A DNA stretch of 64,000 bases. It comes from Elusimicrobiota bacterium (GTDB lineage: Bacteria; Elusimicrobiota; Elusimicrobia; UBA1565). The translations under genes and the position numbers were made by a program. This document shows positions 27,322 through 48,330 of the stretch, in pieces (the first letter of the stretch is position 1; each line of letters begins with the position of its first letter). Location: contig JACRDO010000118.1 of the NCBI GenBank assembly GCA_016212885.1, forward strand, positions 6,296-70,295, in the 5' to 3' direction. The notes under the pieces are model-generated. The model worked only from the letters and a program-made list of their open reading frames with translations. It did not search any database and was not told the origin of the DNA.

Positions 27322-29258
27322 CAAGCGCAGGATCGGCCCGAGTTCTCTTTCTTGAGAAACTCGGTCAGGGGCTCGAAGTAGTCCATCATCGCCTTGGTGC
27401 TGAGGTCCGAGCCGGTCTTCTCGCGCAGGAGCTCGCGCCAGTCGCGGGTCGCGCCCGCGGACAGGAGCCCCTTGAGGAAGGCGCCCGCTTCCTTGCTGTT
27501 GGAATAATCGCAGGTGCGCGGGTCCTGCTTGGCGATGTTGCGGCAGATGTAGGTATGCAGGTGGTACTTGAGAACCGTGGCGATCGCGTAGTTGTAGTAG
27601 TAGACGGGGTTGTCGTTGAGGTGGGTCTTGGTGCAGGCGTCGCAGTACTCCTCTGCGCGGGGCGAAGGTGGCTTCACGCCCTGGTATTTGGCGACATGCT
27701 CCCACCAGCGCGCGTTCCACTGCGCGGTGGACAGGTTGTTCTCGTAGATGTCGCGCTCCCAGGCGGACACCGTTCCGGCGGCCCAGGGCAGGAAGGAAAC
27801 GGTCTCCACGAGGGCTTCGTTGAGCAGCCAGCGGGTCTGGTCGATCTCCTTGCCGGCCGGGAGCACCCCCAGGCGGCGGAGATAGGACTGCCGCATGGAG
27901 GCGAGGGAGCCCAATTCCGCGATGCCCTCATGGAAGGCGCGGTTCGCGCCCTCGCGCAGGAGGAATGGCACATCGGGCCGCGTGTAGGCCTGGTAGTAGA
28001 AGATGTGCCCCAGCTCATGGTGGGCAGTCATGAACCATTCCCTGTCCGGCTTGATGTTCATGAGGGAGCGCATGTCGCCGGACAAGTCGATGTTCCACGC
28101 CGAGGCGTGGGTATTCTTCTTGCGCTTGGAGTCCAGGGGCAGGGCGTAGAGGTCCGACTTCTTCCAGAACGACTCCGGCAGGCGGTCGAACCCCAGCGAG
28201 ACATAGTAGTCTTCCGCGGCCTTGACGAACCACGACGGTTTTCTGTCCTTGAAATAGGGGTCGAGGTCCATGCCCTCCACGATCCCGGGCCATTCCTGGG
28301 ACCAGCGGTTGCCGAGCCAATGGGCCGGGATGAGCTTGGGCGGGGGCTGCCCGTAGCGCTTGGCCAGCTCATACTTGGTCCAGCAATGGAGCTGTTCGTA
28401 GAGCGGCCGTATGTCGCGCAGGAAGCCGTCCAGGAGCGCGGACATCTCGGCAGCTGTCATCCCGTAGTCCGCGGTCTGCAGGCCGAAGTAGGAGCTGAAG
28501 CCGAAGCTCTTCGCGACCGCGTTGCGCAGGGCCCTCAACTCGGCGAGGCCCGGCTTGAGGACCGGGCCGATCTCCTTGGAGGCTTCCCAGACCTTCAGGC
28601 GCACGGAGAGGTCTCTCGTCGAGACGAGGAGGTCGTCGATCTCGTTGGCCGTGGTCGGCTTGGCGCAGGAGCCGTCCAAACTTTCCAAACTTCGTAGGTT
28701 TGGACGTATCGAACCTACGCCGTTTGGAAGGTTCGATGCGTCGGGGTTCTTCTCCAGGCAGAAAACGAAGGAGTCCATGGCGCTCGACTGCCGGCCTTCA
28801 GCCTCGACGCGCTTGGCCGCGATCTCCGGCAGGGTGGCGGGGTTTTCGGCAGCTGCGAGGCGGATCTTCTCCAACTGGCGCACCGTCAAAGGCTGGAGGT
28901 CCCCCTTCCTGGCGAGGAAGCGCTGGACCTGCTCGATGACATAGCGGCTTCCGGTGAAGGAGGCCATGGCCTTGTTGGCCGCGATGCGGCCCCCGTCGTG
29001 CTCGGGCGTCACGTCGGTCGAGGCGTCCCAGGACGCTTCCTGGGACACGGCGTAGAGGCCTTGATAGTAGCCGTTATGCGCTTTAACGAAAGCCTCGGCC
29101 TCCTTTTCGATGTCTCCGGCCGGGGAGCTGGAGCACTCTTCGGTCACGATGACTTTCACGCCGGCCTTGATCATTTTCCCGGCGCCCGGCGAAGGGGCGG
29201 CGGAGAGCGGCGCGGCCAGCAGGATGGAGATCAGGAACCCCGGGATTTGCCTTTGCAT
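27318..29258 (-). CDS. secreted peptidase family M2 (angiotensin-converting-enzyme-like dipeptidyl carboxypeptidase) with N-terminal extension
   Basis: Zinc motifs 'HHELGH' … 'HEGIAE' at ACE-like spacing. Signal peptide 'MQRQIPGFLISILLAAPLSAAP'. An in-frame copy of the palindromic repeat lies at 28674-28742. Confidence 0.7.
   Translation of the reverse strand: MQRQIPGFLISILLAAPLSAAPSPGAGKMIKAGVKVIVTEECSSSPAGDIEKEAEAFVKAHNGYYQGLYAVSQEASWDASTDVTPEHDGGRIAANKAMASFTGSRYVIEQVQRFLARKGDLQPLTVRQLEKIRLAAAENPATLPEIAAKRVEAEGRQSSAMDSFVFCLEKNPDASNLPNGVGSIRPNLRSLESLDGSCAKPTTANEIDDLLVSTRDLSVRLKVWEASKEIGPVLKPGLAELRALRNAVAKSFGFSSYFGLQTADYGMTAAEMSALLDGFLRDIRPLYEQLHCWTKYELAKRYGQPPPKLIPAHWLGNRWSQEWPGIVEGMDLDPYFKDRKPSWFVKAAEDYYVSLGFDRLPESFWKKSDLYALPLDSKRKKNTHASAWNIDLSGDMRSLMNIKPDREWFMTAHHELGHIFYYQAYTRPDVPFLLREGANRAFHEGIAELGSLASMRQSYLRRLGVLPAGKEIDQTRWLLNEALVETVSFLPWAAGTVSAWERDIYENNLSTAQWNARWWEHVAKYQGVKPPSPRAEEYCDACTKTHLNDNPVYYYNYAIATVLKYHLHTYICRNIAKQDPRTCDYSNSKEAGAFLKGLLSAGATRDWRELLREKTGSDLSTKAMMDYFEPLTEFLKKENSGRSCAW
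28674..28742 (+). repeat. palindromic repeat family, copy A (in frame inside the M2 peptidase CDS)
   Basis: GTCCAAAC…CGTAGGTTTGGACGTATCGAACCTACGCCGTTTGGAAGGTTCGATGCG. Nested inverted repeats. Encodes …SNLPNGVGSIRPNLRSLESLDG… in the host frame. Confidence 0.7.
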
Positions 29259-29309
29259 GTATGGGAATGTACCACATTTTATGCAGTGCTGTTTTGATAG
29301 AATCCGGCC

Positions 29310-31133
29310 ATGGCCGGCTCCATCTTCAGGCTTCCGGACCAGGCCCCGTTCGGCCTGCTCGCCCGCGCCTATCCAGGCAGATTCAGCCTCTCGCAGGGGC
29401 TCCGCATAGAGGCCCGAAAGCGAGGGCGCATGGGCTACCGCATCGAACCTCAAAGCGGCAAATTGCTCATCGAGCACGGCGAGCGCTCGGACATAATGCG
29501 GGCTTTGGGCTCTCTGCTGAGCCGCCCGGACATCAAGAAAGAGCTGGGCGAGCCGCCTCTCGCCTTCCGCGGCTTGATGCTGGATGTGAGCCGCAACGGG
29601 GTCATCCGGGTTCCGGCCCTGAAGACGGTCCTTCTGCGCTTGGCGCTTTTGGGCTACAACCGCTTCTGCCTCTACACGGAGGACACCTGCGAGGTCAAAG
29701 GCCATCCGCTGATAGGATACCGGAGAGGGAGATACAGCCAAAGGGAGCTCAGCGAGCTCGACGCATTCGCCCGGGCCCTGGGCATCGAGATGTTCCCCTG
29801 CATCCAGACCCTGGGCCATCTGGAGCAGGTGATCAAGCACGAGCGGTATTGGCCCCTGCGGGACAACGAGCGGGTGCTGTCCGTCGAGCATCCGCGCTCC
29901 CGCAAGCTGGTCGAGACCCTCATCCGCCAAGCGCGCAAGCCTTACCAAAGCGGCCTCATCCACCTAGGCTTAGACGAGACCTGGGGCATCGGACGCGGCG
30001 AGACCTTCATCCACAAGAAGCCCATGGACCCGCGCTGGATGTACCTGCGCCATGTCCGCTGGCTGGCCTCGGTCTGCCGCAGATTGAAGCTCAAGCCCAT
30101 GATGTGGGGCGACGTGGTGGTCGGCTGCCATGAGAAGGCCATGGACCCGGCTCAGCGCAAAGCACTGCCCAAGGGCATGACCATGGTCTATTGGGACTAC
30201 TACCGCGAGCAGGCGGCGCTCTACGAGAAGCGCATCGAAGAATACCGGAAGATGGGCTATGAGCCGCTTTGCTCTCCAGGCATCTGGAATTGGGGCTGCC
30301 TATGGCCCTCCTACCGAAAGGTCAGCCGGACCCTGCCGGTCTTCATGAAAAAGGCGAAGGAAATGGGAATCAAGCGCATGATGGCGACGGCCTGGGGCGA
30401 CGACGGGCAGGAAAGCCCCTTCGACGCGAATTGGCCGGCCCTCTGCCTTTTCGCGGAGGAGGCTTACGAACGCGCGGACGGCGCAGAAGGCGCGAAAGCG
30501 CGCATGCGGGCCGTCTGCGGCGCGGATTACGACGCCGTAGTCCGAGTCGGAGACCTGGAGCTCTATCCCGGGAAGGAGAGCCTCTGCGGCTCCCTTGGGA
30601 AAGCCTTGCTCTGGGAAGACCCCATGGCTGGGCGGATCTCGCACGGCCTGGGGAAGCTCCGTCTATCGGCGCGCTTCAGGCGCCTCGCCGGCCGCATCCG
30701 CTCCGACGCGAGGAAGATGCCTTCGGATTTCCACGACCTCTTCGCCTACGCCTGCGCGCTCGCCGAGTTCCTTGTTCTCAAAGCGGACATCTTCAACGAG
30801 ACCCGCTCGGCTTATGTCCGGCGCGACAAAGCGGCCTTGAGGAAAATCGCTTCGAGCATCCCGGCGCGCGTCCGGGCCCTGGACGACCTCCACGCTGCGC
30901 GCAAGAAGCTGTGGTTTGCTGAATTCAAGCCTTTCGGCTGGGAGGTGCTGGACGGCCGCTTCGGTGGGCTGAGGGCCAGGCTCTTGACGATGAAGGAGCG
31001 CCTGGACGCCTATCTGGCCGGCAGGCTCCCCGCGATCGAGGAGCTGGATGAGAAGCCCGCGCAAGAATTCGCGTCCCTTGCCGGCAAACAGCTCACTCAC
31101 GCGAAGCTCCATACGGCGTCATGGATTCATTGA
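29310..31133 (+). CDS. glycoside hydrolase family 20-like beta-N-acetylhexosaminidase
   Basis: 'FRGLMLDVSRN', 'LGYNRFCLYTEDT' and 'IHLGLDETWG' (HxGGDE-like catalytic pair) resemble the GH20 TIM-barrel. Confidence 0.55.
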   Translation: MAGSIFRLPDQAPFGLLARAYPGRFSLSQGLRIEARKRGRMGYRIEPQSGKLLIEHGERSDIMRALGSLLSRPDIKKELGEPPLAFRGLMLDVSRNGVIRVPALKTVLLRLALLGYNRFCLYTEDTCEVKGHPLIGYRRGRYSQRELSELDAFARALGIEMFPCIQTLGHLEQVIKHERYWPLRDNERVLSVEHPRSRKLVETLIRQARKPYQSGLIHLGLDETWGIGRGETFIHKKPMDPRWMYLRHVRWLASVCRRLKLKPMMWGDVVVGCHEKAMDPAQRKALPKGMTMVYWDYYREQAALYEKRIEEYRKMGYEPLCSPGIWNWGCLWPSYRKVSRTLPVFMKKAKEMGIKRMMATAWGDDGQESPFDANWPALCLFAEEAYERADGAEGAKARMRAVCGADYDAVVRVGDLELYPGKESLCGSLGKALLWEDPMAGRISHGLGKLRLSARFRRLAGRIRSDARKMPSDFHDLFAYACALAEFLVLKADIFNETRSAYVRRDKAALRKIASSIPARVRALDDLHAARKKLWFAEFKPFGWEVLDGRFGGLRARLLTMKERLDAYLAGRLPAIEELDEKPAQEFASLAGKQLTHAKLHTASWIH

Positions 31134-31160
31134 ACCCTTTCGTGCTATCCTATCTTCCGC

Positions 31161-31604
31161 ATGGCTGAACCGCAAGAGCTGGACAAGCAGGTGGCCGAGT
31201 CCCTTCGGCTGGCGCTCAAGCTCGAGAAGTTCTTCCCCCAGAAGCTCGGCGTCGACACCGTTCGGATACTCTTTCCCTTGAGCCGCCTCAACCTCTATGC
31301 GAAGGACGAGTACATCCTCTGCCAAGGGGACGAGTCGAAGGACCTCTACGTCGTCTATTCAGGCTCGGTCGCCATCACCCAGACCCAGGGGACCGCCGGG
31401 GCCCAGCTCGCCACTCTCGGGCCGGGCGCCATCTTCGGCGAGATCGCCTTGATCCGCGACGGGGTCCGGGTCGCGAGCGCGATCGCGGCCGAGGAAAGCC
31501 GGGCCTTCCGCATCGAGTACCGGGACATCCAATCCCTCATGGACGGCAACCCGGAACTGGCCGAGCACTTGAAGGATCTCGCCCGGCAGCGCTCCGGCGG
31601 CTGA
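31161..31604 (+). CDS. cyclic-nucleotide-binding (CAP-effector) domain protein
   Basis: 'GAIFGEIALIRDGVRVASAIAAEESRAFRI' is the cNMP-binding phosphate-binding cassette. Single-domain 147 aa. Confidence 0.7.
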   Translation: MAEPQELDKQVAESLRLALKLEKFFPQKLGVDTVRILFPLSRLNLYAKDEYILCQGDESKDLYVVYSGSVAITQTQGTAGAQLATLGPGAIFGEIALIRDGVRVASAIAAEESRAFRIEYRDIQSLMDGNPELAEHLKDLARQRSGG

Positions 31605-31613
31605 AGCCCGCCG

Positions 31614-32306
31614 TCAGACCTTCAGGATCTTCGTGATCTCGTTGTAGGCCGCGAGGGAGGCGGAGTAGACGTAGTCCGCGCCGAGCTTCTCGAGCACCCC
31701 CACCAGGTTGTCCATGGCGCACCGGGCCGCGATATGGACCTCCGGGTTCGCGTCGCGGGCGTTCTTGGTCACGATGATCGCGGTCTCGATGTTGTTGGAC
31801 GCGAGGATGACCTGGCGGGCGTGCTTGATGTTGGCGGAGGGGAGCGCGTCCGGCGTGCAGGCGTCGTCGACGACCACCGGCTCGCCCTTGCGCAGGAGAT
31901 CGTCGACCAAGGCGCGGTTCTTCTCGATGAGGCAGTAGGGGATCTTGTTGTTGATGCAGTGGCCCACGAGCCTCTTCCCCAGATGGGTGTAGCCGATGAT
32001 GATGGTGTGGTCTCTCAAGAGTCCTGCCATAAGTCGGCACCTCTCCGCGTAATTTTCCATGGTCTCGCGCAGGATCAGGGCGATGACGACCCCGAAGACG
32101 AAGGACTGCCCCCAGAAGGAGTAGCCCTGGCTGAAGGCGTCGGGCTGCACCTTAAGATAGAGGGCGCTGAGCAGGGCGTCGTGCCAGCTCAGCCGCCCGA
32201 AGAACCGGAAGGCCAGGGCCGCGGCGGCCAGCCAGAGCGCGAGGACGGCCAGCAGGCGGCGCATGCGGTAGAGCGAAGCCCGAGCCTTGAGCGTCCAGAG
32301 GCGCAT
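31614..32306 (-). CDS. membrane protein with RCK/TrkA-N NAD-binding domain (ion-channel-like)
   Basis: Two or three N-terminal TM helices, then 'HTIIIGYTHLGKRL' Rossmann motif (TrkA-N). No clear GYG selectivity filter. Confidence 0.55.
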   Translation of the reverse strand: MRLWTLKARASLYRMRRLLAVLALWLAAAALAFRFFGRLSWHDALLSALYLKVQPDAFSQGYSFWGQSFVFGVVIALILRETMENYAERCRLMAGLLRDHTIIIGYTHLGKRLVGHCINNKIPYCLIEKNRALVDDLLRKGEPVVVDDACTPDALPSANIKHARQVILASNNIETAIIVTKNARDANPEVHIAARCAMDNLVGVLEKLGADYVYSASLAAYNEITKILKV

Positions 32307-32377
32307 GAGAGGGGTTCCTCAGTTCTCGAACGGGCAGGGCCAGAGCGCGCGGAAGGATCGGCCGGGCTTGAAAGCCC

Positions 32378-33241
32378 TCAAAGCTCCAGCTCCTGCCCTT
32401 CCTTGGCGGCGAAGAGCTCGAAGGCGCCCCCCAGCCCCTTGGCCAGGGCCTTCGACTGCTCGACCGTCTTGTCGATCCCGTCGTCGCTGCGCGTCGGCTC
32501 GTGGTGGAAGAGGGCCAGCCGCTTGACCTTGGACTCCACGGCCAGCCGGACCGTGTCGCGCCAGCGGCTGTGCCCCCAGCCCCGCTTGATCTTGTAGTCC
32601 TCGTCGTCGTACTGCGCGTCGCAGATCAGCAGGTCGCAGCCCTTGCAGAACTCGGCCACCAGCCGGTCCTGGCCCGAGTAGAAATCCTGCTCGCCGCCCA
32701 GGGCCCGGTTGCACTCGTGGTCCGTCAGGTAGACGACGCTCGCCCCGGAGAATTCGAAGCGGTAGCCCACGTCCACGCCCGGATGGTTCGTGAAGATGAC
32801 CCCCACCGGCACCCCGCGGGCCTCGAAGGGCCTGTCCACGCGGATGAACTCGAGCTTGGCCGCCATGTCGTTGACTTCGACGGGGAAGAAGTTGTGCGCC
32901 ATCTGGGAGCGGAAGATCTCCTCGAAGCCCGCGCCGACTCCATGCGCGCTGTGGATCCTCATGCGGTTCTTCGGGCCGTAAGCGGGCAGGAAGAAGGGCC
33001 AGCCCTGGATGTGGTCCCAGTGGGTATGGGTGATGAAGACGTCGGCCTCCATGGGCCGGCCGGCGAACTCCTTGAACAGCTTGACCCCGAGCTCGCGGAT
33101 GCCGGTCCCGCTGTCGCAGATGAAGACGTTCCCGTTCTCGCGCAGCTCCACGCAGGGGGTGTTGCCGCCGTAGCGCAGGGTCGTGGGCCCGGGCACCGGG
33201 ATCGAGCCGCGCACGCCCCAGAACCTTATCCGTACGCTCAT
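32378..33241 (-). CDS. MBL-fold metallo-hydrolase (class II cNMP-phosphodiesterase/RNase Z-like)
   Basis: 'HTHWDH' H-x-H-x-D-H motif, later 'LTDHE' and 'LFHHEP'. Start overlaps the upstream receiver gene's stop (ATGA). Confidence 0.7.
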   Translation of the reverse strand: MSVRIRFWGVRGSIPVPGPTTLRYGGNTPCVELRENGNVFICDSGTGIRELGVKLFKEFAGRPMEADVFITHTHWDHIQGWPFFLPAYGPKNRMRIHSAHGVGAGFEEIFRSQMAHNFFPVEVNDMAAKLEFIRVDRPFEARGVPVGVIFTNHPGVDVGYRFEFSGASVVYLTDHECNRALGGEQDFYSGQDRLVAEFCKGCDLLICDAQYDDEDYKIKRGWGHSRWRDTVRLAVESKVKRLALFHHEPTRSDDGIDKTVEQSKALAKGLGGAFELFAAKEGQELEL

Positions 33242-33738
33242 TTATCCCCGTCCAAACCTTCCGAACGTCGTAGGTTTGGACGTATCGAACCTGCGCCGTT
33301 TGGAAGGTTCGATACGTCCAAAGATGCGCCGCTCCCGCCCCCAAGAGCCTCCTTCACGGCCTCGAGCAGGGCTTCCAGCGAATAGGGCTTGGTGAGATAC
33401 GCGTCGGCCCCCAGGCGCATGGCCGCCTTCTTGTCGACGCCGAAAGACTTGCCTGAGGAGATGATGATCTTCACGCCCTTGAGCCTGCCGTCCTCGCGGA
33501 TCCTCTGGCAGACCTCGAAGCCGTGCATGTCCGGCATCATCAGGTCGAGGATGATGATATCCGGCTTCGTTTCGCCGGCCAAGTCGCAGCCCCTCTTGCC
33601 GTTGAAAGCGATGAAGACTTCGTGCTGCTGCGAACGGAGGCATTGAGAGATGAATTCGACGATGCCGACGTCGTCGTCGACCACCAGGACGCGGGCCACG
33701 GGCGTATTATGGCAAAAAAAAAGGCCCCTCAATCGCAA
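33238..33738 (-). CDS. single-domain response regulator receiver (CheY-like) with repeat-encoded C-terminal tail
   Basis: 'VLVVDDD…IIILDLMMPDMHGFEV…ISSGKS…ADAYLTKP' receiver motifs. Likely GTG/ATG start. The last ~25 aa are encoded by repeat copy B. Confidence 0.75.
   Translation of the reverse strand: MRLRGLFFCHNTPVARVLVVDDDVGIVEFISQCLRSQQHEVFIAFNGKRGCDLAGETKPDIIILDLMMPDMHGFEVCQRIREDGRLKGVKIIISSGKSFGVDKKAAMRLGADAYLTKPYSLEALLEAVKEALGGGSGASLDVSNLPNGAGSIRPNLRRSEGLDGDK
33250..33323 (+). repeat. palindromic repeat family, copy B (forms the 3' end of the receiver CDS and the MBL gene start region)
   Basis: GTCCAAACCTTCCGAACGTCGTAGGTTTGGACGTATCGAACCTGCGCCGTTTGGAAGGTTCGATACGTCCAAAG. Encodes …SNLPNGAGSIRPNLRRSEGLDGDK*. 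Confidence 0.7.
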
Positions 33739-33758
33739 GGATCAAGGGGCCTTTCCGG

Positions 33759-36700
33759 CTACTTCTTCGCGCCGTTCCCCGCTGCCCCGCTATTCGCGGG
33801 ACTGCGAGGCTCGACATTGCCTGTAGCCTCGACCGCCTTCTGCATGTCGTGCAGGCGCTGGATGCGCAGCGTCGTGTCCGGATGGGTGATGAAGAGGTTG
33901 AAGAAGAAGTTGTCCTCCTTGCCCACGGCCAGGCGGGTCAGAAGGTCGAACTCCGGGAGGGCGCCCGCCCGGTAGAGCTGTTCGACCGGGTTGACCGTCA
34001 TCAGGTGCGCCTGGGAGGCGAGCCTGGGCAGGTCTTCCTTCGGCAGGACGAAGCCGGATGGCGGCTGCCAGGTCGTCAGCAGGCTCAGGCCGAGGGCGAG
34101 CGCGGCCGGGTCCATGGTCAGCAGGGCCCCGTCCTCGTCGGCCCCTCCCTCGCGCACGCGCGAGGACGCCATCTGGAGGATCGTCGCGATGATCGGCCCC
34201 CAGAGCGCGGCGAAGATGCGCAGCAGCCCGAGCGCGGTCTGGACCGCCGCCCCCACGGTGACCGGCTCGACGACGGCCTCCGGCTTGACGGAAGCCTTAT
34301 CCCTGCCGCCGAAGACGTCCAAACCTGCGCCGTTTGGAGAGTTCGATGCGCCGGATGGCCGGCACAGGAGGATCTCCTTGAGCTTCTTGGCGGCCGCTTT
34401 GGCGTGGCCCACGGCCCAGAGGACCCCGTAGGAGGAGAACGCGATCGCAGATGACATCGCCCCGGCCACGGCCCCGATGATCATATCGCGGTTCATGACG
34501 TGGCTGAACTCATGCCCGAGGACCCCGCGCAGGGCGCGGTAGCCCAGCGCCTTGAGCTCGGCGGAGGATGCCTTCTCAAGCGCCTCCCGCAGCTCGGCCT
34601 GAGAGGCGTTCTCAGAGATGCCCGAGATGGAGCCGCGGATGGCGGCCCGGAACACGGCGAAGGGCTTGCCGGAGGGATCCGTGAGCGCCACAAGGCGGAT
34701 GAGCCCCGGGCGCAGGAACTCCGGCTCCAGGAGCATCTGCTTGATCTCGTAGGTCACGCCCACCATGGCCTTATGCGGGCTCATGCCGGTCGCGAAGGCG
34801 TTGGGGACGCCCATTTTCACATTGATGATCTCCGGCATCGGGATGGGCTTCTTGCCCTTAGCCACGAGGCCGCGGTTGATGATCTCGCGGAGCTCGGTCA
34901 TGATGGAGAAGACCTCTGGGTCCTTCTGCGCGTCGGTCGGCTCGCCTTTCATGACCTTCTTGATGAGCTGACGGCTGAAAACGACCTGCAGGCCGGTGAT
35001 CACGCCGATGAAGGCGAGGTTGCCGAGGAAAGACGTGATGGTGAAGACCGCGGAGGTCATGGCCGCGCTGAGCGCGACCAGGCCGCCGAGCGCCGCGCCG
35101 GTCCTCAGCCAGAAATGAAAGACGGGCCAGCGGGACGGCTTGGAGCTCTCCGCCTGCTCCTCCTGGGGGGCGGCCGAGGAAGGCGAAGCCTGGCGGGCCG
35201 GGAAGAGCTTCCCCAGCAGAGCCTCGGTCCAGACCGCGGCCCGCTCTGGCGCGAAGGCGAGCATGAGGAAGGTCACCGGCGCGGCGAAGCCGGTCGCAGC
35301 TGCCCATAGGGCCACCGCGGCGTAGGCCCAGTTGAAGATCTTCGACTTCCCGGTGAACATCCATGCGGCGAACGCCGCGTTGACCCAGATCGGGGAGTAG
35401 CCGGTCAGCAGGGCGAACACGACCCCGGTCAGCACCCAGGTGTAGATCGGGAAGCGCAGCGGCGCAAGCCCGCCCGGCACGCGGAAGGGCCGGCCGGTCT
35501 CCGCCGAGCGGATGAGGTAGCCCAGGAAGAAGGAGACGGTCGTCATGGCCGGCAGGGCCATGAGGGCGAAGATCGAGGCCAGGGTCAGGGGCGCGGCTGC
35601 GGCGACGCCGATCAAGGGGGCGACCAAGGTTAGCGAGGCCCAGGCCAGCAGCTTGTCGAAGAGGCCTCCTGCGGGCCCGCCTTCCTTCCGCGCCGCTTTG
35701 GCCGCGGCGAAGGACGCCAGCGACACGAAGGGCAGGGCGAGCGCCAGATGGCCGATGGCGGCGCCGCCTACGAACGCCGGGGCTGTGACCGCGACGGCGC
35801 CGAGGAACGCGCCGATGAAGAGGTCTAAGGCGAGCTTGACGCCGGCGAGCCTTGCCGAGTCGCGCAGGCCCAGGCGGTAGCGCGAGTAAACGGCTACGGG
35901 CAGAAGCAGGGCCCCGGAGCTGACGGCCCAGAGGGCCGCCACCGGCATCAGCCCGAAGATCGCGGGCAGGAGCGCCACGGCCGCGGCCTGCAGACCTATG
36001 ACCGCCGCGGCGGAAGCCGCGATGCGCGCGATGGAGATCGCGGCCCGGATGGGACGGCTGAGAGTCTTCTGCGGCTTGGACTCCTGGGCCAGGATGGAGA
36101 CCCTCTCGATGCTCGGCGCGGCATCAACAGTTCGCTCCTGCGGGGCTTGGAGCTGACTGCCTGAGTTCGAGCCTTCGACGGCGGAAACTGGAGCTTCGAC
36201 GTCCGCTGAAACCTTGATGGATCTCACGCCGAGGATCTTGTCCATCATGGCCGCGCCGGCTTCGCGCGCAACCCCTTGCGGCATCTGGGCGATCTCTTCA
36301 GCCGGGAGGGCGACCGAGCGCTGGTCAGAAACGAGGGTCTTAAAGGAAGGGGCCTGGCCTGGGACCTCGGCCTGCTGTTTGACCGCGAAGGCGTTCGCTT
36401 TGACCTCTACTGCGGCGGCTTTGACGTTCGCCGGAGTCTGGCTTATGGGGGAGGCCACGACTGACTTGATGCCGACGGCTTTTGGGGTGATCAGATTTCC
36501 GGACACCTTCGATACTATGGGAGCCTGCACCCCCGGTATGACACTGGTCTTCAAGCTGAGGTCGGAGGAATCGAGCCGGATGGAGGATTGGACCCCGCCT
36601 ATTGGGATGGCCGCTCCGACCTGACCTCCCGGGAGCATGGCGCCGGTCGGGACAGTCTGGACGTGGACTTGCGCAAAAAGTTGATAGCCCTCGAAGCCGG

Positions 36701-36776: not shown

Positions 36777-36953
36777 TTTCCCTCCGGGCACAAAGCCATG
36801 TTTCCAGGGATTATAGACCCTCATGCCCATGCGGCGGAATGGCCCATGGGCCCGGCAGGGGGCTGATTTTTGGCCCAGCTTCGGCCTGGGCAGGAGGGTT
36901 CACTCCTGGGGGGCAAAAAGGACTAGATGGCGGAAATCGTGTAGAATTGAGCT

Positions 36954-37739: not shown

Positions 37740-37754
37740 AGCCGGGTCAGGCGT

Positions 37755-40700: not shown

Positions 40701-40832
40701 TCTCCGGGCGCGGACCTGCCAGGCCTTCCAGACCTGCGAAAACGCGCCGCGGCCCAAGGGCCAGGTCAGGATGTAGCCGGGGATCTTCGGGGCTTGCGGG
40801 TCCTGCTCTGGAAGCTGAGCCTCTCCTTCCAT
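37755..40832 (-). CDS. Ser/Thr protein kinase with TM segment and ~16 WD40 repeats (paralog of 6429-10193)
   Basis: Kinase subdomains ('LGRGAFSQVWKA', 'LHCNLKPANVLL', 'ADFGRP'). TM 'ALAVLCGVAFAGLLLTGI'. Repeated 'FSPDGK.VLTGS.D.TARLWDA.TGEP.GK' blades. Confidence 0.8.
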   Translation of the reverse strand: MEGEAQLPEQDPQAPKIPGYILTWPLGRGAFSQVWKAWQVRARRWVALKVFLQKGGVDWPSLQRQIEQLVRLDKHPNIVSILDVDLTGDPPYYVMDYLKRGSLELFVCMKKPAPAEKAAQWLEEIAQALAYVHSKGILHCNLKPANVLLDEEEHARVADFGRPLKPDVRGDIYGLGRTMYAALAGEIPDKQPLKGCREVTHGRVDEDIGAIIDKCAQADAGKRYATAAEILEDLTARREHRPVSPLAYRPFYRFKKFARRRAALAVLCGVAFAGLLLTGIKVYRQQQALKQQLAMSYAMQGRQYSEKGEDALAALYYAESNRLSPSYMARANALAHVEAAGIPRLVFQHPFGISAVAFSPDGKRALTADTISLAQLWDASTGEPAGQIMHADAGVEAAVFSPDGKRMLMGSWDKIARLWDANTGEPIGKVMQHDDSVRGVAFSSDGKRIFTVSSGTVWFWNAETGEPIGKVLPHTDAVAAVAFSPDGKVVLTGNWDRTARFWDAKTGKLMGKALRHDGAVTAVAFSPDGKSVLTGSWDNTARLWDAKTGETIGKAMRHDDVVVAVAFSPDGKHVLTGSRDKAARLWDATTGEPTGKVMRHDDAVAALAFSPDGRSVLSGDQDGIARLWDVNPAGPAYKILKHGDAVAAVAFSPDGKRVLSRSWSNTARLWDADMGQPVGKVMRHEDRVMCAVFSPDGKSVLTGSRDNTARLWDAKTGEPAGKIMPHGGGVSAVAFSPDGKSVLTGSRDNTARLWDAKTGEPVGKIMPHGDAVSLVAFSPDVSCLLTGSAYGAIRLWDAKTGEPIGKVIKHESWAQLEAFSRDGRTALVKTTDRTEQLWDIRMDKPIGKAMHRVKPVMGVAFSSNGKHVLTGNMDKTAQLWDAKTGEPIGRVMRHDDSVKAVDFSPDGRSVLTGSDDKTARLWDAFSGEPIGKVMRHDNMVCTGAFSPDGREIVTGSPDATARLWDVSWLNQDVSPQKLLMMAQLASLSRINDRGEREAIPAKEWYKLKRKLEPWKADINQLPASP
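38527..38778 (+). repeat. near-identical 126-bp tandem duplication (two WD40 blades) inside the kinase-WD40 gene
   Basis: Two consecutive 126-nt units differing at only a few positions. Encoded blades 'DNTARLWDAKTGEPAGKIMPHGGGVSAVAFSPDGKSVLTGSR' and 'DNTARLWDAKTGEPVGKIMPHGDAVSLVAFSPD…'. Confidence 0.7.
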
Positions 40833-40836
40833 CCGC

Positions 40837-42666
40837 CTACTCCCTCCTCGCCGCTCTTCTCTCGTCCTCGCTCTCGAGCTGCAGGTTTCTCACCGCCTCG
40901 AAATAGCCCCTCGCCCCTTCCAGCATAATCCTGGCGAAGAGGTCTTTGCCGCTTTCGCTCAGCAGCATCTCCTCCTGCGCGGGGAGCATCACGTAGGCCG
41001 ACTCGGTGAGGACCGCGGGCATCTGCAAGGTCCGGCAGACGTGGAGGTCGCCCCAATGGATGGCCTCATCGGGCAGCGGGGAGTTCCGGCCGTAGGCCGC
41101 GTGCATGGCGTCGGCGAGGGGCCGGCTGTGCGGCTGGTAGTAGAGGTTCATGAAGCCGCGCGGGGACTCGAAGGGGTCGTCTGTGACCGCAAGGGCGTTG
41201 TTGTGGATGCTGATGAGCATGTCCCCCTTCAGGGACCAGGCTATGCCCGGGCGTTCGTAGAGAGGAGGCCCAGCTGAGCTTGCGCGCGTGAGGAACACCT
41301 CGGCCCCTTCTTTCTCAAGAAGCTTCTTCAGAGAAAACGCCAGCGCGAGGTTGATGTCCTGCTCCTGCGAGCCCATGGGGCCGAGCGCGCCGCGGTCCGG
41401 GCCGTGGCCGGGGTCGAGCACGATGCGGCGCCCGGCGAGCACGTTCAAATCACCTGAGAGCGCCGGAGGCCGCCGGATCTCCAGCACGAAGCGGCCTTTT
41501 TCATAGTAAGCGTCGTATCCGCAGCCCCACTTAAGGCGCGTCTGGATTGTAAGCTTGACGACCTGAGAGGTTTCCTGCTTCCAGCGCACCTCGCGCAGGA
41601 TTGAATCGCCCGGAGCGTAGCGGATGCGGTCGATGCGCTGCTGGGCCCCGTAGAAGCGCACCTCGAAAGCCAGCGGCTCGATGGTCTCATACACCTCGAA
41701 CGGGAGATTCTTGTCCACCTGCACGCTGAGCCGGACCGAGCCTGAAGAGACCGCCGTGCTCAGGTATTTCCCGACCGTGCCGGAGGGCGGCGGAGTCCCC
41801 TTCGGCAGGATCCGCACCTGCGCGGAGTCCACCCAAGCCTCGTCCTCGGGCGAGAGGGCGATGCGCAGGCTCGACCCGGCGCTGCCGCTGACCGCGAGCT
41901 GTATCCCCGGGGGCATGAACAGGTCGTAGCCGCCGGCCGCGGACTTGAGGATCGTGGTCTTGGCCGTGCTGAGGGCCACTTGATAGCGCCCGCCCTCAAG
42001 GAGAGAGAGCTTGCCCGGAGCTTCGGCCTTGAGCTTCCCATCCTTGCTCTTGAACTGGATGAGGATCTTGCGGTTCTTCCCCTCCTTCCCTCCCGGGATG
42101 CGCCAGCGGCCCTCGTAGAGTCCGTTCTCCAGCTCTTCCATGGACTGGTCCTTGGATAGGTCATGGACCCGGAAATGGGCCTCCGCGCCGGCCGGCCCGC
42201 GGCAGCGGACCGTCAGCCAATCGCCGGAATGAAGCGTCAGATCCTCCTTGGGCTCGAGGACCAGGATGCGCTTCTCCGCAAGCGCCTCGAATACGTCCGA
42301 GACGCTGACCGCTCTGACCGCCTCGGTGGAGACGCCGTTGAGCTGGGCCGAGAATCGCAGCTCGAAGGGCCCGGTCGAGAAATCGACCATGGCAAGGAAG
42401 GCGCCGCTGGCGCGCGGCTGGATGGGCTGGCCGTTGACCGTGAGGGTCGAGCCCGGGGTCACATTGCCGAAGGTGTAGGAGCGCTTCAAATACGGGTATT
42501 TTGCGCCTTCGGCGGGCCAGATGACGCGGATCTCGGGGATTACGGCGGCCGCCTGGGTGGAGAGCGACACAGGAGCCGTTGAAACGCTCGTGACCGCTGC
42601 CGTCGAAGCGTCTTGGGCGTAGGCCGCGGCGGGAAGCGCCGCCAGGAGGATCGCCAAGAGAATCAT
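40837..42666 (-). CDS. N-acetylmuramoyl-L-alanine amidase (Amidase_3, AmiC-like) with long N-terminal domains
   Basis: C-terminal 'RIVLDPGHGPDRGALGP…DINLALAF…LISIHNNA' is the Amidase_3 zinc site. Signal peptide start chosen at MILLAILLAALPAAAYA. Confidence 0.75.
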   Translation of the reverse strand: MILLAILLAALPAAAYAQDASTAAVTSVSTAPVSLSTQAAAVIPEIRVIWPAEGAKYPYLKRSYTFGNVTPGSTLTVNGQPIQPRASGAFLAMVDFSTGPFELRFSAQLNGVSTEAVRAVSVSDVFEALAEKRILVLEPKEDLTLHSGDWLTVRCRGPAGAEAHFRVHDLSKDQSMEELENGLYEGRWRIPGGKEGKNRKILIQFKSKDGKLKAEAPGKLSLLEGGRYQVALSTAKTTILKSAAGGYDLFMPPGIQLAVSGSAGSSLRIALSPEDEAWVDSAQVRILPKGTPPPSGTVGKYLSTAVSSGSVRLSVQVDKNLPFEVYETIEPLAFEVRFYGAQQRIDRIRYAPGDSILREVRWKQETSQVVKLTIQTRLKWGCGYDAYYEKGRFVLEIRRPPALSGDLNVLAGRRIVLDPGHGPDRGALGPMGSQEQDINLALAFSLKKLLEKEGAEVFLTRASSAGPPLYERPGIAWSLKGDMLISIHNNALAVTDDPFESPRGFMNLYYQPHSRPLADAMHAAYGRNSPLPDEAIHWGDLHVCRTLQMPAVLTESAYVMLPAQEEMLLSESGKDLFARIMLEGARGYFEAVRNLQLESEDERRAARRE

Positions 42667-42844
42667 GATGGAAATAGTATCTTGAGCGGAGCGCACGCGC
42701 AAGGCAGGCAGAGACGACGGCAGCGTCTCAGGCCGCATGCAGGCGGAGCTTTTCGAGGATTGTCACCTTTTCCTGACAAAATAGAAAATTCCATACCTGC
42801 CCAGACGGCAACTGGACCGGATTGGCCATTTATAAAATTGGCCA

Positions 42845-44590
42845 GTGCATTGGCCAATTGACGGGCGTTCCCTGCAAGCATATTATCTCCCTGTGGCCGC
42901 CTTTTTCCACACCGCCATCCTGAGCCTCATCGCCGGGGCCGCCCAATTTTTGCCGGTCTCCGGCTCGGCCCACCGGATCCTCTATCCTTGGATGCTGCAG
43001 TGGGGCGGCCTGGGCCCCGGCTTCGAGGCCGCGGCGCTCTGGGGCTCCCTGCTCGCCCTGCTCGCCTATTTGGGGCCTCAGCGTCAGCGGCTTCTTGCCG
43101 ACAAGACCCTGCTCCGCGGCCTCGCCCTGGCGTCGCTCCCCGCAGCCTTGTCCGCGTGGCTGACATACGGCCGGCTGGACGGCTTTCAAAAGAGCGAGCC
43201 CATCGCTTTTGCCCTGATCTTCTTCGCGATCCTGCTCTTCATCGCGGATCGCAGGGGGCGTAAAGCCCGGGACGCTTCGCAATTGTCCCCCGCCGAGTTC
43301 CTGGTGATCGGCTGCGCGCAGGCGATGGCCCTCATCCCCGGCGCATCGCTCATCGGGCTCTCCATGACCGCGACCCTGGTGCTGGGCCTGCGCCGAGCCG
43401 AGGCGGGCCGCCTCGCCTTCCTGCTCTCAACACCGCTCCTAATGGGCCTGACCCTGCTCAAGCTCAAGGGAGTTCCCGCAGGCAGCCTCGGCCTGCAGTT
43501 CTGGGCCGCCCTTGCGCTCTCAGCCTGCGCCGGAACCGCCGCCATCCGCTTCCTTCTCCGCTATCTCGAGACCAAGGACATCGGGATCTTCTGCCTCTAC
43601 CGGGTGGGGCTCGGCCTGCTGGCCTTGCTGCTCGCCGCGGCCCAGCCTCCGGTCCATTCGGCGAGAGAGCTGAAGCTCCCTCCCCCCCAGCGCGCGGACC
43701 CGGCAACGCTCTCCCCGGATGCCGCAAAACTCAGGACGCACGTCCTGGCCCTGGCGCGGGACCTCGGCAAGCGGAGCGCCGTGCGCCCCGGCCAGCTGGA
43801 GCTGAACCGCGCCCGCGATTACGTCATGGCGGAATTCAAGCGCTGCGGCTGCAAGCCTGAGATGGAAACCTACACCTCCCAATGGATGGGCGCGGTCAAG
43901 AACGGCACGACCTTCCACAACGTCGTCGCGGCGATCGGGGACACGTCGGCTGGCGGCGTATGGGTCTTGGGGGCCCACTACGACAGCGCCGAGGGCACCC
44001 CCGGCGCGGACGACAACGCGAGCGGAGTCGCGGTCATTCTGGAGCTGGCCTGCGCCTTGAAGGAGCGGCCCCCCAAGATGCCCGTGCGCCTCGTGGCCTA
44101 CTCCACCGAGGAGCCGCCGGCCTACGGCACCGTCAACATGGGCAGCGCCCACGACGCGAAGAGGCTGAAGTCCGAGGGCGTGAAGGTGGCCGGCATGATC
44201 AGCCTGGAGATGCTCGGCTACTACGACTCAAGGCCCGGCTCCCAGATCTACTTCCCTTTCCTCAAATGGTTCATCCCGGATCGGGGCGATTTCCTGGCCC
44301 TGGTTTCGAACTTCAAGAGCCGGCCGTTCCTCAAGAGAGTCAGCCGCTCCTGGCGCAGGCATTCCGATTTCCCGCTCCTGCCGCTGGCGCTGCCTGAGTT
44401 CGAGGCGATCCGCCCATCGGACCACCAGGGCTACTGGGACCAAGGCTTCCGAGCCCTGATGCTGACGGACAGCGCCAGCTACCGCAACCCGCATTATCAT
44501 GAGCCGACGGACCTGCCCGACACCTTGGATTATGAGGCCATGGCCCGAGTCAAGCGGGCCCTCGCGAACGTGCTCAGCTCGGACGACTGA
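42845..44590 (+). CDS. uppP: fusion protein: undecaprenyl-diphosphatase (UppP/BacA) + M28 family peptidase
   Basis: N-terminal polytopic half with BacA motif 'AQFLPVSGSAHRIL'. C-terminal 'VWVLGAHYDSAEGTPGADDNASGVAVILELA' M28 zinc site. Exact start uncertain. Confidence 0.65.
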   Translation: MHWPIDGRSLQAYYLPVAAFFHTAILSLIAGAAQFLPVSGSAHRILYPWMLQWGGLGPGFEAAALWGSLLALLAYLGPQRQRLLADKTLLRGLALASLPAALSAWLTYGRLDGFQKSEPIAFALIFFAILLFIADRRGRKARDASQLSPAEFLVIGCAQAMALIPGASLIGLSMTATLVLGLRRAEAGRLAFLLSTPLLMGLTLLKLKGVPAGSLGLQFWAALALSACAGTAAIRFLLRYLETKDIGIFCLYRVGLGLLALLLAAAQPPVHSARELKLPPPQRADPATLSPDAAKLRTHVLALARDLGKRSAVRPGQLELNRARDYVMAEFKRCGCKPEMETYTSQWMGAVKNGTTFHNVVAAIGDTSAGGVWVLGAHYDSAEGTPGADDNASGVAVILELACALKERPPKMPVRLVAYSTEEPPAYGTVNMGSAHDAKRLKSEGVKVAGMISLEMLGYYDSRPGSQIYFPFLKWFIPDRGDFLALVSNFKSRPFLKRVSRSWRRHSDFPLLPLALPEFEAIRPSDHQGYWDQGFRALMLTDSASYRNPHYHEPTDLPDTLDYEAMARVKRALANVLSSDD

Positions 44591-44799
44591 TTCAGCTTTC
44601 GCAAGTCACTCCCCTAACCGCGTCCAACCTTTACTCCGCTTTGGAAAGCCGCCATTTCTCCCAGCCTTCGAGCCCGAACACGGTCGGCGTCTGTTTGTCT
44701 CCGAGATCGTCCAGCATGTGTTTCCTGCTGAATTCGAAAGCCTCGCCAGGGCTCCAGCAGCATCGCTTCTTCGACCTCTCGAAGTTGATCCCCGGGCTC

Positions 44800-45096
44800 T
44801 CACCGCCCTATTGTGTGCAAGGCGGAATATTCGGGCACGCCGATGTACCTGTCCGGACGATACCGATGATGCTCGGCCAAGAAGTGGTCAAGCCTCCCCG
44901 AAACTTTGGCGGAGATGTATGCCTCGTCGCACTGCCGGCATACGTCAGCCGGCACGTCTTTAATGACGAGCAACTCCCCGCCGATCCATAACTCCAGGGT
45001 GGTTTCGCCGCGCCTCAACTCCCCCCCACACAAGTCGCACCGGTCTACTATCTTCCTTGTCTTTTGACCTTTCGAGTTCTGTAGTCGCTTTCCCAT
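44800..45096 (-). CDS. YgiT-type zinc-finger protein (MqsA-like antitoxin N-domain)
   Basis: 'CDLCGGELRRGETTLELWIGGELLVIKDVPADVCRQCDEAY' is a CxxC…CxxC zinc ribbon. Overlaps the upstream DUF4258 gene. Confidence 0.6.
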   Translation of the reverse strand: MGKRLQNSKGQKTRKIVDRCDLCGGELRRGETTLELWIGGELLVIKDVPADVCRQCDEAYISAKVSGRLDHFLAEHHRYRPDRYIGVPEYSALHTIGR

Positions 45097-45389
45097 AGGG
45101 TATCCTCCGGCTCATATACCGTCACAATGCGCAGTGCTGGTTCCACGTCTCCCCTTGAACAAACGACGTGCAGCGGATCGCCCGAAGCCCCCCGCCCAAG
45201 CACCAAACAAGATGGATACGGCGTGTCATCCGGATATCGTTCGATGATCTCCCCTTTGAGCAGTGCTCGTTCCAATTCATTAACTCCGATACCTCGTTCC
45301 AGCCGGATGATGGTGGCATGCTTTGTCAGTCGATACCGTTTGGCCCGGACGTGGCTGTGGATGAAGTGTAGACTGGGCGCTTCGGGCAT
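45048..45389 (-). CDS. DUF4258-like putative toxin
   Basis: 113-aa ORF 'HFIHSHVRAKRYRLTKHATIIRLERGIGVNELERAL'. Typical partner of zf-YgiT genes. Confidence 0.45.
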   Translation of the reverse strand: MPEAPSLHFIHSHVRAKRYRLTKHATIIRLERGIGVNELERALLKGEIIERYPDDTPYPSCLVLGRGASGDPLHVVCSRGDVEPALRIVTVYEPEDTLWESDYRTRKVKRQGR

Positions 45390-45492
45390 AACCCACGTTC
45401 TCCTTGCTTACGCCAAATTCAAGTCATTTTGCCATTTTTTGGGAACTTCGCTGCTGGCGACGGACTTAGACGACTGAGAAGCCGCGGGCCCG

Positions 45493-47501
45493 CTACTTCT
45501 TCTTCAGCACGATCCACTTCTCCGTGAAGCGGGCCATCTCCTCGCGGTAGCGCTTGTGCTTGGGGTACTCCTGGGCCGCAATCTCGGTCAGGTTCCGGAC
45601 CCACTCCTCGCTGAAGGCCAGGGCCCCCTCGGCCGGCGCGTAGGCCGCGCGGTAGACGCTGCCCGGCCCTTCCAGGCGCACGGCCTCGGGCGCATAGTAG
45701 AGCTCATAGCCTGCCGGCAGGGTGATGCCGACCTCCTTGCTCAGGCGGTCGCGCTGGTACCAGAACAGCGGGGATTCCCGGCTCGGCTGCCCCACGTCGG
45801 CGGCGGAGTGCTCGACCCAAGGGATGCGGAACGCGAGGAATCCGCCCGCGGCCGTGATGGCGTAGTCCTTGACCGAATACCTGAGGGGCTGATCTCGTTG
45901 ACACGGTTCTGGAACACCTTCTTCTGCTCGCTCTCCTTGATGCTCTTGTAGTAGCCGCGCAGCTCGCCTTCGCGCGCTCCGATGTAGCGCGCCGAATAGC
46001 CCACGTCCGCGTCGCCGGCCGAGCTCAGGCGCGCCGAGTACTCGTAGCGGCTGGAGTTGCCTTCCGGCTTGGGCGCCTCGACCATCTCCATGTCCTTGGC
46101 GAACACGTTGAGGGCCTTTACCCCGTGATCCATGGTCGGGAACGCCGGATAGCGGTAGTCGTAGCCTGTGGAATCCAGGAAGAAGCCCCGGCCGGCGAGC
46201 TTGAGGTAGGTGATGGCATGCTCGAACCAGATGTCCGGGACCCGGAAATCGTGATCCGCGGCGTGGTTGGTGTCCAGCAGGACGGGCGAGGAATAGATTC
46301 CCGCGGCCTTGAGCATGGCCGTAAACAGCAGGGCCTTGTCTATGCAGCAGCCGTAGCGCCTCTTCCAGGTCAGGTTGGCGTCGTAGCCTCCCCAGCCCGA
46401 GGCCACGCCCATCTTGACCGCGACGTAGCGGACCTGCTTCTGGATATAGTGGTAGATGGCGGCCGTCTTCTCTTCGTCCGTCCTGCAGTCCTTGATGAGC
46501 TCCAAGGCGAACTGCGCGAGCTCCGTGCCGGGGTTGGACCTCTCCTTGTACATCTGCGCGAGCCAGTCGAAGATGCGGTCCCAGTCCTTGAAGAGCGCGG
46601 CTTTTAAGCCCGGCGCGTAATCCCAGTACTGCGCCATCAGGGGTTCTCCCACGATCTGGGGCACGTCGCGCAGCTCCCAGGAGTAGGCGCGGGCCTTCTC
46701 ATCCGAAATGATCCGGGGCTCGGCCTGCTTCTTCCAAGGCCCGGTGAAGTTCCTGACCGCGTAGAAGAGCTTCTGGGATTTGGGGACCGTGATGCTGAAG
46801 CGCGACACGAGCACCGGGGATGCGCTCTGGAAGCCCCAGCGCGGGAAGAAGAAATCCTTGCGGAAGGGGTTGTAGGTCTCCTTCTCGATCTCCCATTCCA
46901 CGATGGAGCCCACCTCCACCTGGGGCAGAGGATAGCTGATGGTGTGGTATTCCGTGAAGAAAAGGGCTTGCCCTTGCGGCTTGGAGGTCTTGATCTTCTC
47001 GGGCTCCAAGGGGAAGACCTTCCCATCCGGGTGATAGACCGTGGCTTTCACGATGCGGACGCGCTCGCGGCCTTCCTCGAAATAGCCGGCGGCCTCGCCC
47101 CAGGACTGCTTGAGCGCTTCCTTGAGGATCCTGCCCGCGAAGCGCGTGCGCTCGACCCATGTCCCGTCGTCCCTGACTACGTACTCCCCCTCGTCGAGCA
47201 GGACCAGGCCGTCGGTGCCCTGGTGGCGCTTGCCGAACTCCTCGGCTTGGCTGAACAGGTCCTTGCCGCGCTGCACGGCCGCGTGGTCCGCCGCTGCCGC
47301 GGCCTGCTCGGGCTTCTTCATGGCGAACTGTATCTCCAAGACGTCCTCGCGGGGCAGGCTTCGCCCGTCCTCCAGGAGGAGCTTCCCTGCGTCCAGCGAC
47401 GAGACTCCGGCATGGATGTCCGTGCCGGAACGCATCTTGAGCGTCTCCGAGGATGCGCTCGTCTGAGCCGCGAAAAGAAGAAGGATGGCCGTACCAAACA
47501 T
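45493..47501 (-). pseudogene. secreted transglutaminase-like cysteine-protease-domain protein (DUF3857-like N-terminus), frameshifted near the 3' end
   Basis: The 45741-47633 frame carries the signal peptide (MFGTAILLLFAAQTSA) and the transglutaminase core 'YGCCIDKALLFTAMLKAAGIYS'. The C-terminal ~130 aa continue in another frame (45493-45795 ORF '…QPLRYSVKDYAITAAGGFLAFRIPW…'). The frame switch is near 45893-45900 at a C-run (gatcagcccc). Confidence 0.6.
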
Positions 47502-47580
47502 CGGAAATGCGTTGGTTTGGCACGTCCCAAACCTACGTCGTTTGGAAAGTTCGATACGTCGTCTGGATGTTTGGGACATC
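47493..47580 (+). repeat. palindromic repeat family, copy D (5' leader of the transglutaminase-like gene / islet border)
   Basis: …CCAAACATCGGAAATGCGTTGGTTTGG CACGTCCCAAACCTACGTCGTTTGGAAAGTTCGATACGTCGTCTGGATGTTTGGGACATC. Same core as copies A-C plus extra inverted repeats. Confidence 0.65.
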
Positions 47581-47669
47581 AATAGTCGCATAGAGTTCCT
47601 CTCAATAGTTGGCTTGCGACGTCCCTTTCTCATGCCCGCGCGGATGCCGCGCCCTTGCCGCCCATTATA

Positions 47670-48313: not shown

Positions 48314-48330
48314 CGCAGCCCTCTCGACTC

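Follow-up and report, generated by a model that had tools for sequence, protein, structure and literature searches.

The DNA analysed here is a 64,000-nt window of contig JACRDO010000118.1 from an Elusimicrobiota bacterium (GCA_016212885.1), and all coordinates given without a locus name are window positions. Four minus-strand genes in this window, encoding an M2 family metallopeptidase, a single-domain response-regulator receiver, a large membrane M48 peptidase and a DUF3857/transglutaminase-like protein, each host one copy of a short palindromic repeat (Table 1). Exact NCBI matches to the M2 peptidase (P0001), the receiver (P0143) and the DUF3857 protein (P0263, MBI5244286.1) were found in an Elusimicrobia metagenome-assembled genome (MAG). 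The receiver stop overlaps the start of a metallo-beta-lactamase (MBL)-fold gene (32378-33241), and the sequence GTCCAAAG directly follows copy 2 at 33316-33323. The results presented below lead us to the conclusion that these copies very probably represent a small mobile element that inserts into genes while keeping their reading frame.

Table 1. Repeat copies, host genes and neighbouring islet, in window positions
Feature	Position	Strand	Details
Copy 1, full type A, 66 nt	28674-28739	+	Unit a1 28674-28705 (GTCCAAAC-loop-GTTTGGAC); unit a2 28706-28739 (GTATCGAAC-loop-GTTCGATGC)
Copy 2, full type A, 66 nt	33250-33315	+	Unit a1 33250-33281; unit a2 33282-33315
Copy 3, 33-nt single-unit derivative	34317-34349	+	a1 5' arm GTCCAAAC joined to a2 loop and 3' arm CTGCGCCGTTTGGAGA-GTTCGATGC
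Copy 4, 87-nt composite, type-B-like pair	47491-47577	+	Unit d1 47491-47523; unit d2 47524-47577
M2 family metallopeptidase, 646 aa (P0001)	27318-29258	-	Host of copy 1
Single-domain response-regulator receiver, 153 aa (P0143)	33238-33699	-	Host of copy 2
Large membrane M48 peptidase	33759-36830	-	Host of copy 3
DUF3857/transglutaminase-like protein	45741-47591	-	Host of copy 4; annotated start 47501, likely ancestral start 47591
Lower-GC toxin-antitoxin islet beside copy 4	47670-49472		PIN 47670-48068 (-); ribbon-helix-helix (RHH) antitoxin 48059-48313 (-); Fic 48654-49472 (+)

The four-copy, same-strand repeat is real. A search of the window for the core AAACCTRCGYCGTTTGGARRGTTCGATRCG with no more than three mismatches returned four matches (28711, 33287, 34321 and 47529), all on the plus strand, and a core match was present in 0 of 100 dinucleotide shuffles, giving four observed against none expected. 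The paired motif CCAAAC-N4-30-GTTTGG occurred six times in the window against an expectation of 0.04. Pairwise repeat identity among the grouped window copies is 88-93%, and the repeat has a G+C content of 47-53%, compared with about 65% for the window. An nhmmer model built from five full copies, applied to the window and to roughly 110 kb of related loci, recovered only the copies described here, and a scan designed for the hairpin (GT....AAC, loop, reverse complement) gave nothing beyond them. A CRISPR-like array was considered and rejected because the spacing is not regular, and an assembly artefact was rejected because the element is present in independent NCBI, ENA, JGI and Logan assemblies. 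An earlier sequence-only reading of this DNA had reported four copies in one orientation with a shared core; these are confirmed, with their extents refined to the boundaries in Table 1.

The basic unit of the repeat is a short imperfect palindrome, a stem-loop of 32-34 nt with stems of 8-9 bp and loops of 15-16 nt. A full type A element is exactly 66 nt long and consists of two such units of about 33 nt in inverted orientation, where unit a1 reads GTCCAAAC(C), loop, (G)GTTTGGAC and unit a2 reads GTATCGAAC, loop, GTTCGATAC. The a2 loop, CTACGCCGTTTGGAAA, is the reverse complement of the a1 loop. Since the two loops are mutually complementary, two folds are open to the pair, a set of two hairpins or a single long one, and copy 1 has its energy minimum in the long form. 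Whichever strand was folded, full copies had z-scores between -3.3 and -5.0, with values of -4.1 and -5.0 for the plus strands of the two full window copies, which confirms the nested inverted repeats of the sequence-only reading. The two ends of type A, GTCCAAAC and GTTCGATAC, are complementary only as GT-C-AAC and do not form a terminal inverted repeat of 15-30 bp. A sister element, type B, is also 66 nt long and is built as GTCCCGAAC-loop-GTTCGGGAC followed by GTCCAAAAC-loop-GTTTTGGAC (locus L003, 5094-5159).

With all units placed in one orientation, the consensus is GT-xxxx-AAC-CTACG-nnn-T(T/C)TGGA-GTT-xxxx-AC. The motif CGTAG/CTACG is present in 13 of 14 type A units as well as in the B units, and is positioned within the loop beside the stem, not outside it. 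Pairing of the stems was counted on an alignment of the arms only (MAFFT misplaced gaps when applied to whole units). Across nine stem variants 98.8% of the stem positions were paired, with two-sided changes in five of nine pairs, a result equalled by 0 of 500 shuffles. Six stem variants retain pairing through compensatory changes; within type A, such a variant is present at locus L002 (GTCCAAATC/GATTTGGAC). Two of the window copies depart from the full type A design. The chimeric arrangement of copy 3 is the expected product of a deletion between AACCT direct repeats, and the d2 loop of copy 4 contains a 21-nt type A remnant (47538-47558). An arrangement like that of copy 4, with a complete A element inside a B element, is found at L002.

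Each strand of the element contains a stop in one frame only (the TAG of CGTAGG), leaving four of the six frames open. Because 66 nt is a multiple of three and four frames are open, insertions preserve the frame of the host gene. The intragenic copies identified by nucleotide search (window copies 1-3 and a copy in the gene for a secreted protein at L010) all share the same orientation and frame (4/4), with the common reading (V/A)SNxPNxxGSIRPNLRxxExLD. On the minus strand, copy 1 reads ASNLPNGVGSIRPNLRSLESLD within the M2 peptidase, copy 2 reads VSNLPNGAGSIRPNLRRSEGLD and ends three codons ahead of the receiver stop, and copy 3 reads ASNSPNGAGLDV, contributing SNSPNGAGLDV to the M48 peptidase. 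The placement of three copies in minus-strand open reading frames (ORFs), all in one frame, was thus correctly identified at the outset.

Comparison with homologues demonstrates that the segments in the M2 peptidase and the receiver are insertions. The 22 residues DASNLPNGVGSIRPNLRSLESL of the M2 peptidase are absent from 12 of 12 aligned homologues, including a 73%-identical protein from UBA9639. At the DNA level, the site is empty in L005 (AAGAGCACGGAC followed directly by GGGGCC) and filled in the window (CCCGAC, 66 nt, GGCTCC), corresponding to an exact 66-nt insertion. This copy had been taken for an inter-domain linker; however, it lies inside a single Pfam Peptidase_M2 domain, between two conserved cysteines. 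In the AlphaFold model of the protein (pTM 0.79), residues 176-194 have pLDDT values below 50 and are located between strands at 165-167 and 201-203, and the insertion takes the form of a loop predicted with low confidence, unlike the remainder of the fold, which is confident. The alignment of the M2 peptidase to PDB begins downstream of the insertion and does not place the loop there.

For the receiver, 11 of 11 homologues end a few residues past a GGG(S/A) motif and the window protein is about 22 residues longer. A syntenic M48-receiver-MBL cluster from another genome (L014) is without the element, and the receiver insertion is seen in the DNA alignment with L014 and L013. The 4-nt ATGA stop/start overlap is kept in both of these loci. 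The repeat therefore does provide the C-terminal tail of a protein whose stop overlaps the next start, as the sequence-only reading proposed, but it does not supply the stop codon, which lies 10 nt outside the repeat and is ancestral, the ATGA overlap being present in the repeat-less L014.

Copy 4 had been described as the 5' leader of the DUF3857 gene. The start annotated by NCBI (ATG, 47501-47499) lies inside unit d1 of this copy. Another ATG, further upstream at 47591, is preceded by a good Shine-Dalgarno sequence, AGAGGA, and its frame stays open through all of copy 4. Removal of the 87 nt of copy 4 restores MRLLM joined directly to AILLLFAAQTSASS, a canonical signal peptide. We infer from this reconstruction that copy 4 is probably an in-frame insertion into the signal peptide of the DUF3857 protein. 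Most likely, the inserted peptides are neutral passengers. At its other end, the DUF3857 ORF (45741-47633) finishes in a Ser/Arg/Pro-rich tail of about 50 residues that overlaps a 100-codon ORF in another frame (45493-45795, with a G+C content at third codon positions, GC3, of 0.94); this overlap could reflect a frameshift, an assembly error or a gene fusion.

Two related Elusimicrobia MAGs, represented by loci L002 and L003, share a common IS91-like transposase remnant (Y2_Tnp) that is about 95% identical between them. In this comparison, an A element is present in L003 only, between GAAGCC and GTCCTCC, and another is present in L002 only, inside the loop of a B element between CCTAC and GACGTC; each is exactly 66 nt. 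The B element is missing from a paralogous L003 fragment, where AAGGTCTT is followed directly by GAGGT. A palindromic insert of a third kind, about 60 nt long (CACCCTCCGCGCCCCTAGGCGCTTCGGGTGCGG...), was observed at L003 5427-5490 and about 5205-5265, and in the homologous part of L002; as it lies in the same IS91-like pseudogene, the remnant carries three types of small palindromic element. The flanks of the nested L002 site (CCTAC and GACGTC) make a target duplication of more than 1 nt impossible, and the two resolvable sites are without duplication. The insertion point is followed by a G in each of the eight A copies and in the single B site that was inspected. The right flank is GTC(C/G) in four of the eight A copies, with a tetranucleotide that varies (GTCC, GTCG, GACG, GCCG, GGGG), and the type A element itself begins with GTCC. 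Together, the filled and empty sites demonstrate that the element is mobile, that it moves as an exact 66-nt block without target duplication, that copies nest and decay by internal deletion, and that the host frame is preserved. The peptide segments of the M2 peptidase and the receiver are insertions absent from orthologues, in line with the initial proposal that the repeat can enter ORFs without disrupting them, and they are not ancestral linkers that orthologues would carry as well.

The element is not confined to the window. An exact 20-base core pattern gave three matches in 185,579 representative genomes, all in Elusimicrobia MAGs of UBA9639 and UBA9634, and four matches in JGI metagenomes, and these counts are lower bounds since an exact-pattern search misses diverged copies. 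A scan of viral contigs for the core pattern gave 0 matches. Seven full copies from at least four assemblies have a mean identity of 92.6%, third codon positions included, whereas protein identity between host orthologues is no more than 66-73%. When 1.84 billion representative proteins were searched with the peptide, one further carrier emerged, the alpha-amylase P0264 (MBI5244661.1), which contains two in-frame copies of the peptide, one at residues 21-42 directly after the signal peptide and one at residues 506-527; the search used one frame only, and these matches are biased to that frame. This protein is probably from the same MAG as the window, on a different contig, as its accession is close to that of the DUF3857 protein. 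A second candidate from the peptide search, P0265, was rejected as a chance match to a repetitive protein. The repeat thus occurs in other Elusimicrobia MAGs, in metagenomes and on a contig that probably belongs to the same MAG, and not only in the DNA from which it was first described.

Copies outside the window are also found in other contexts. At L001 and L009 they lie between or downstream of genes, in sense orientation. At L008 and L011, an IS110-family insertion sequence (IS) splits a type A copy at the CGTAG/G junction; in L008 the two parts of the element are at 216-240 and 1744-1787 and the IS110 transposase is at 295-1443, with the split at CGTAG/(AG)GTTTGG. The presence of IS110 inside a copy indicates that the repeat serves as an IS110 target, as do repetitive extragenic palindromic sequences (REPs), which are documented targets of this family (PMC1525189).

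Based on these results, we consider it very probable that the copies constitute a family of small non-autonomous mobile elements of Elusimicrobia. The mobile entity is the 66-nt head-to-head pair of units with different stems, similar to a REP doublet (REPIN), and inserts as an exact block whose target is not duplicated. As an element of 22 codons built from units of about 11 codons, it keeps the frame of the host gene and adds a hydrophilic segment in which Pro, Asn, Gly, Ser and Arg are abundant, and which would be tolerated in surface loops, at termini and in signal peptides. Intragenic copies would later decay by internal deletion, as suggested by copy 3 and by the remnant in copy 4. Movement may take place as single-stranded hairpin DNA and may be catalysed in trans by an HUH-type transposase. 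One candidate enzyme would be a REP-associated tyrosine transposase (RAYT) or an IS200/IS605-like Y1 transposase, the types proposed for REPs and REPINs (PMC3116915, PMC3733652), and another would be an IS91-like Y2 transposase.

Several observations weigh against this conclusion. No transposase was detected by Pfam in the 47 window ORFs scanned, which include most of those supported by GC3, and no Y1 or DDE transposase was detected by Pfam in the flanks of L002 and L003; these scans yielded only toxin-antitoxin modules, an IS91-like remnant (L003) and an IS110 (L008). The copy number appears low, with four copies in the window, two on the contig that is probably from the same MAG, and one or two exact matches per representative MAG assembly, and the majority of known copies lie inside genes. 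A genome with REPs or REPINs usually has tens to hundreds of copies, mostly extragenic. The GTAG of the Elusimicrobia element is placed at the loop-stem junction, while that of REPs is an unpaired terminal tag. In the M48 peptidase, copy 3 falls within a linker that differs in length from one homologue to another, and it does not present a clean indel. Lastly, the test for stem covariation is partly circular, since the arms were chosen by eye.

A mobile element of this kind might, beyond tolerating coding sequence, be specialised for it, so that the 11- and 22-codon sizes, the lack of target duplication and the four stop-free frames, with the flexible hydrophilic loops that they encode, would be adaptations. 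Such a family could persist in a gene-dense genome and could repeatedly give proteins, for the most part exported enzymes, new surface loops, tails or longer signal peptides, perhaps through an undescribed HUH transposase of Elusimicrobia. We regard this extension as speculative and rather unlikely.

The sequence-only reading also allowed for a structured RNA, in which case the element would act as a cis-regulatory hairpin, an mRNA-stability or terminator element, or a small RNA, and its mobility would be secondary. The strong folds of the full copies (z of -4 to -5), the covarying stems and the sense-oriented copies at L001 and L009 are compatible with this proposal, and many REPs are thought to work as RNA hairpins (PMC3733652). 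However, no copy matched Rfam (15) at E≤1 in a scan of 28000-48000, the two strands fold about alike with G-T wobbles that favour neither consistently, and no T-run or terminator-like site is present near copy 4, the sole copy scanned. Furthermore, copies lie antisense in four unrelated ORFs, in pseudogenes, nested within another element or split by an IS, and orthologous genes manage without the element. A functional RNA receives no positive support from our results, and we judge it to be very unlikely. A classical miniature inverted-repeat transposable element (MITE), that is, a deletion derivative of an IS with a DDE transposase, terminal inverted repeats and a target-site duplication, is less likely still. 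While the small, non-coding, palindromic nature of the element and its polymorphic sites would suit a MITE, and the recurrence of its first 3-4 nt (GTCC) just past the element in four of eight copies is readable as a target duplication, the nested L002 insertion permits no duplication longer than 1 nt. Additionally, the match between the ends is limited to GT-C-AAC, without a long inverted repeat, and no related IS with matching ends was seen. Thus, of the initial suggestion of a MITE/REP-like element, the REP-type small mobile repeat is retained, but not the strict MITE, which is contradicted by the lack of long terminal inverted repeats and of target duplication at the two resolvable sites.

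The remaining alternative places selection on the peptide rather than on the DNA, with SNLPNGxGSIRPNLR as a useful module or an ancestral linker whose palindromy is incidental. The use of one frame in six proteins, five of them exported or in the membrane (the M2 and M48 peptidases, the L010 protein and the alpha-amylase counted twice), would be expected for such a module, yet the peptide search was made in this frame only, which biases the alpha-amylase matches toward it. The segment is also missing from homologues of the M2 peptidase and the receiver, and the nucleotide identity of about 92% extends to third codon positions. In addition, there are places where this DNA is not translated at all, is read in a different frame, as in copy 4, or faces the other way. 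A selected peptide is accordingly the least credible of the explanations considered, and we find it extremely improbable.

The closest known kinds of element to this mobile family are intragenic REP dimers and Rickettsia palindromic elements (RPEs); the in-frame behaviour is therefore already known, and the Elusimicrobia case is a new example of it. REP dimers inside genes encode 20-30 residues in Opitutus terrae and Rickettsia conorii (Di Nocera et al. 2013, PMC3733652). Like REP doublets and REPINs (Bertels & Rainey 2011, PMC3116915), the Elusimicrobia element is composed of short imperfect palindromes with stems of 8-9 bp, paired in inverted orientation and able to form one long hairpin. 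It further resembles REPs in its GTAG/CTAC motif beside the stem, its compensatory stem variants, its lack of target duplication and its use as a target by the IS110 family. In contrast to REPs and REPINs, its GTAG is at the loop-stem junction and is not an unpaired tag at the end, its units abut without a spacer, its apparent copy number is low with mostly intragenic copies, and no RAYT is present in the scanned window or in the flanks of L002 and L003. Elusimicrobia is not among the eight phyla covered in PMC3733652, and a search of the literature brought up no account of repeats of this kind from the phylum.

RPEs are found in frame in unrelated functional genes and encode peptides compatible with the fold of the protein (PMC10969869; PMC3733652), and the Elusimicrobia element is likewise a palindromic repeat in frame within functional ORFs. 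RPEs of the RPE-1 type, however, are about 100-150 bp and belong to obligate intracellular Alphaproteobacteria, in contrast to an element of 66 nt with a clear two-unit build. Since host and length differ, we treat RPEs as an analogue and not as the same family. Unlike the element described here, palindromic amphipathic repeat coding elements (PARCELs) are of greater length, code for amphipathic segments and are arranged in tandem within genes of Mollicutes and of some eukaryotic microbes. Common to both is that they are palindromic, translatable on both strands and located within ORFs (PMC2996958).

Members of the IS91 family do not duplicate their target, carry subterminal palindromes at both ends and insert beside GTTC, CTTG or, for IS1294b, GTCC (bioRxiv 10.1101/2025.01.24.634351). 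The Elusimicrobia element similarly lacks a duplication and has hairpins at both ends, type A starts with GTCC and GTC(C/G) follows four of its eight copies, and IS91-like Y2_Tnp remnants are present in related MAGs. Unlike IS91, it is without a transposase gene and its flanking tetranucleotide is variable, and a link to a Y2 enzyme is therefore put forward here only as a candidate.

Other repeats and genes were observed in the window. A second hairpin repeat of 44 nt is present at 1968-2011 and 9725-9768, where the two copies are 82% identical and their stems (CCCTTG-N18-CAAGGG and CCTTTG-N18-CAAAG) differ by a compensatory change. Both copies are apparently intragenic, in a GlgE-like gene (2-2047, plus strand) and in a kinase-TPR-WD40 gene (6429-10193, minus strand), and this repeat may be another intragenic palindromic family. 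Tandem periodicity of 126 nt (42 residues) at 37937-39783 and 7376-8047 corresponds to the WD40 beta-propeller repeats of two large genes on the minus strand, one of them a fusion with a Ser/Thr kinase and TPR repeats. A Cas3-like gene with HD, DEAD helicase and Cas3 C-terminal domains (25054-27720, minus strand) adjoins the M2 peptidase gene; Pfam scans of the window detected no other cas genes, and no search for a CRISPR array was made. Lower-GC islets at 1991-2530, 15843-16497, 44800-45389, 47670-48313 and 48654-49472 encode toxin-antitoxin modules (PIN, HepT/MNT, DUF4258 with an MqsA-like partner, PIN/RHH and Fic) and contain no transposase. The islet region beside copy 4 (47670-49472) lies outside the element and is also without a transposase.

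With these results, palindromic mobile elements that insert in frame, familiar mainly from Rickettsia and from a small number of genomes rich in REPs, are now also known from an uncultured phylum. This family is an unusually clean case, with exact 66-nt blocks, empty sites available for comparison, nesting and identifiable decay products. For the annotation of such MAGs, extra loops, tails and shifted starts, as for the DUF3857 gene, can stem from insertions of this kind. Should the mobilising enzyme be identified, the family would provide a compact model for the movement of hairpin elements and for the gain of loops by proteins.

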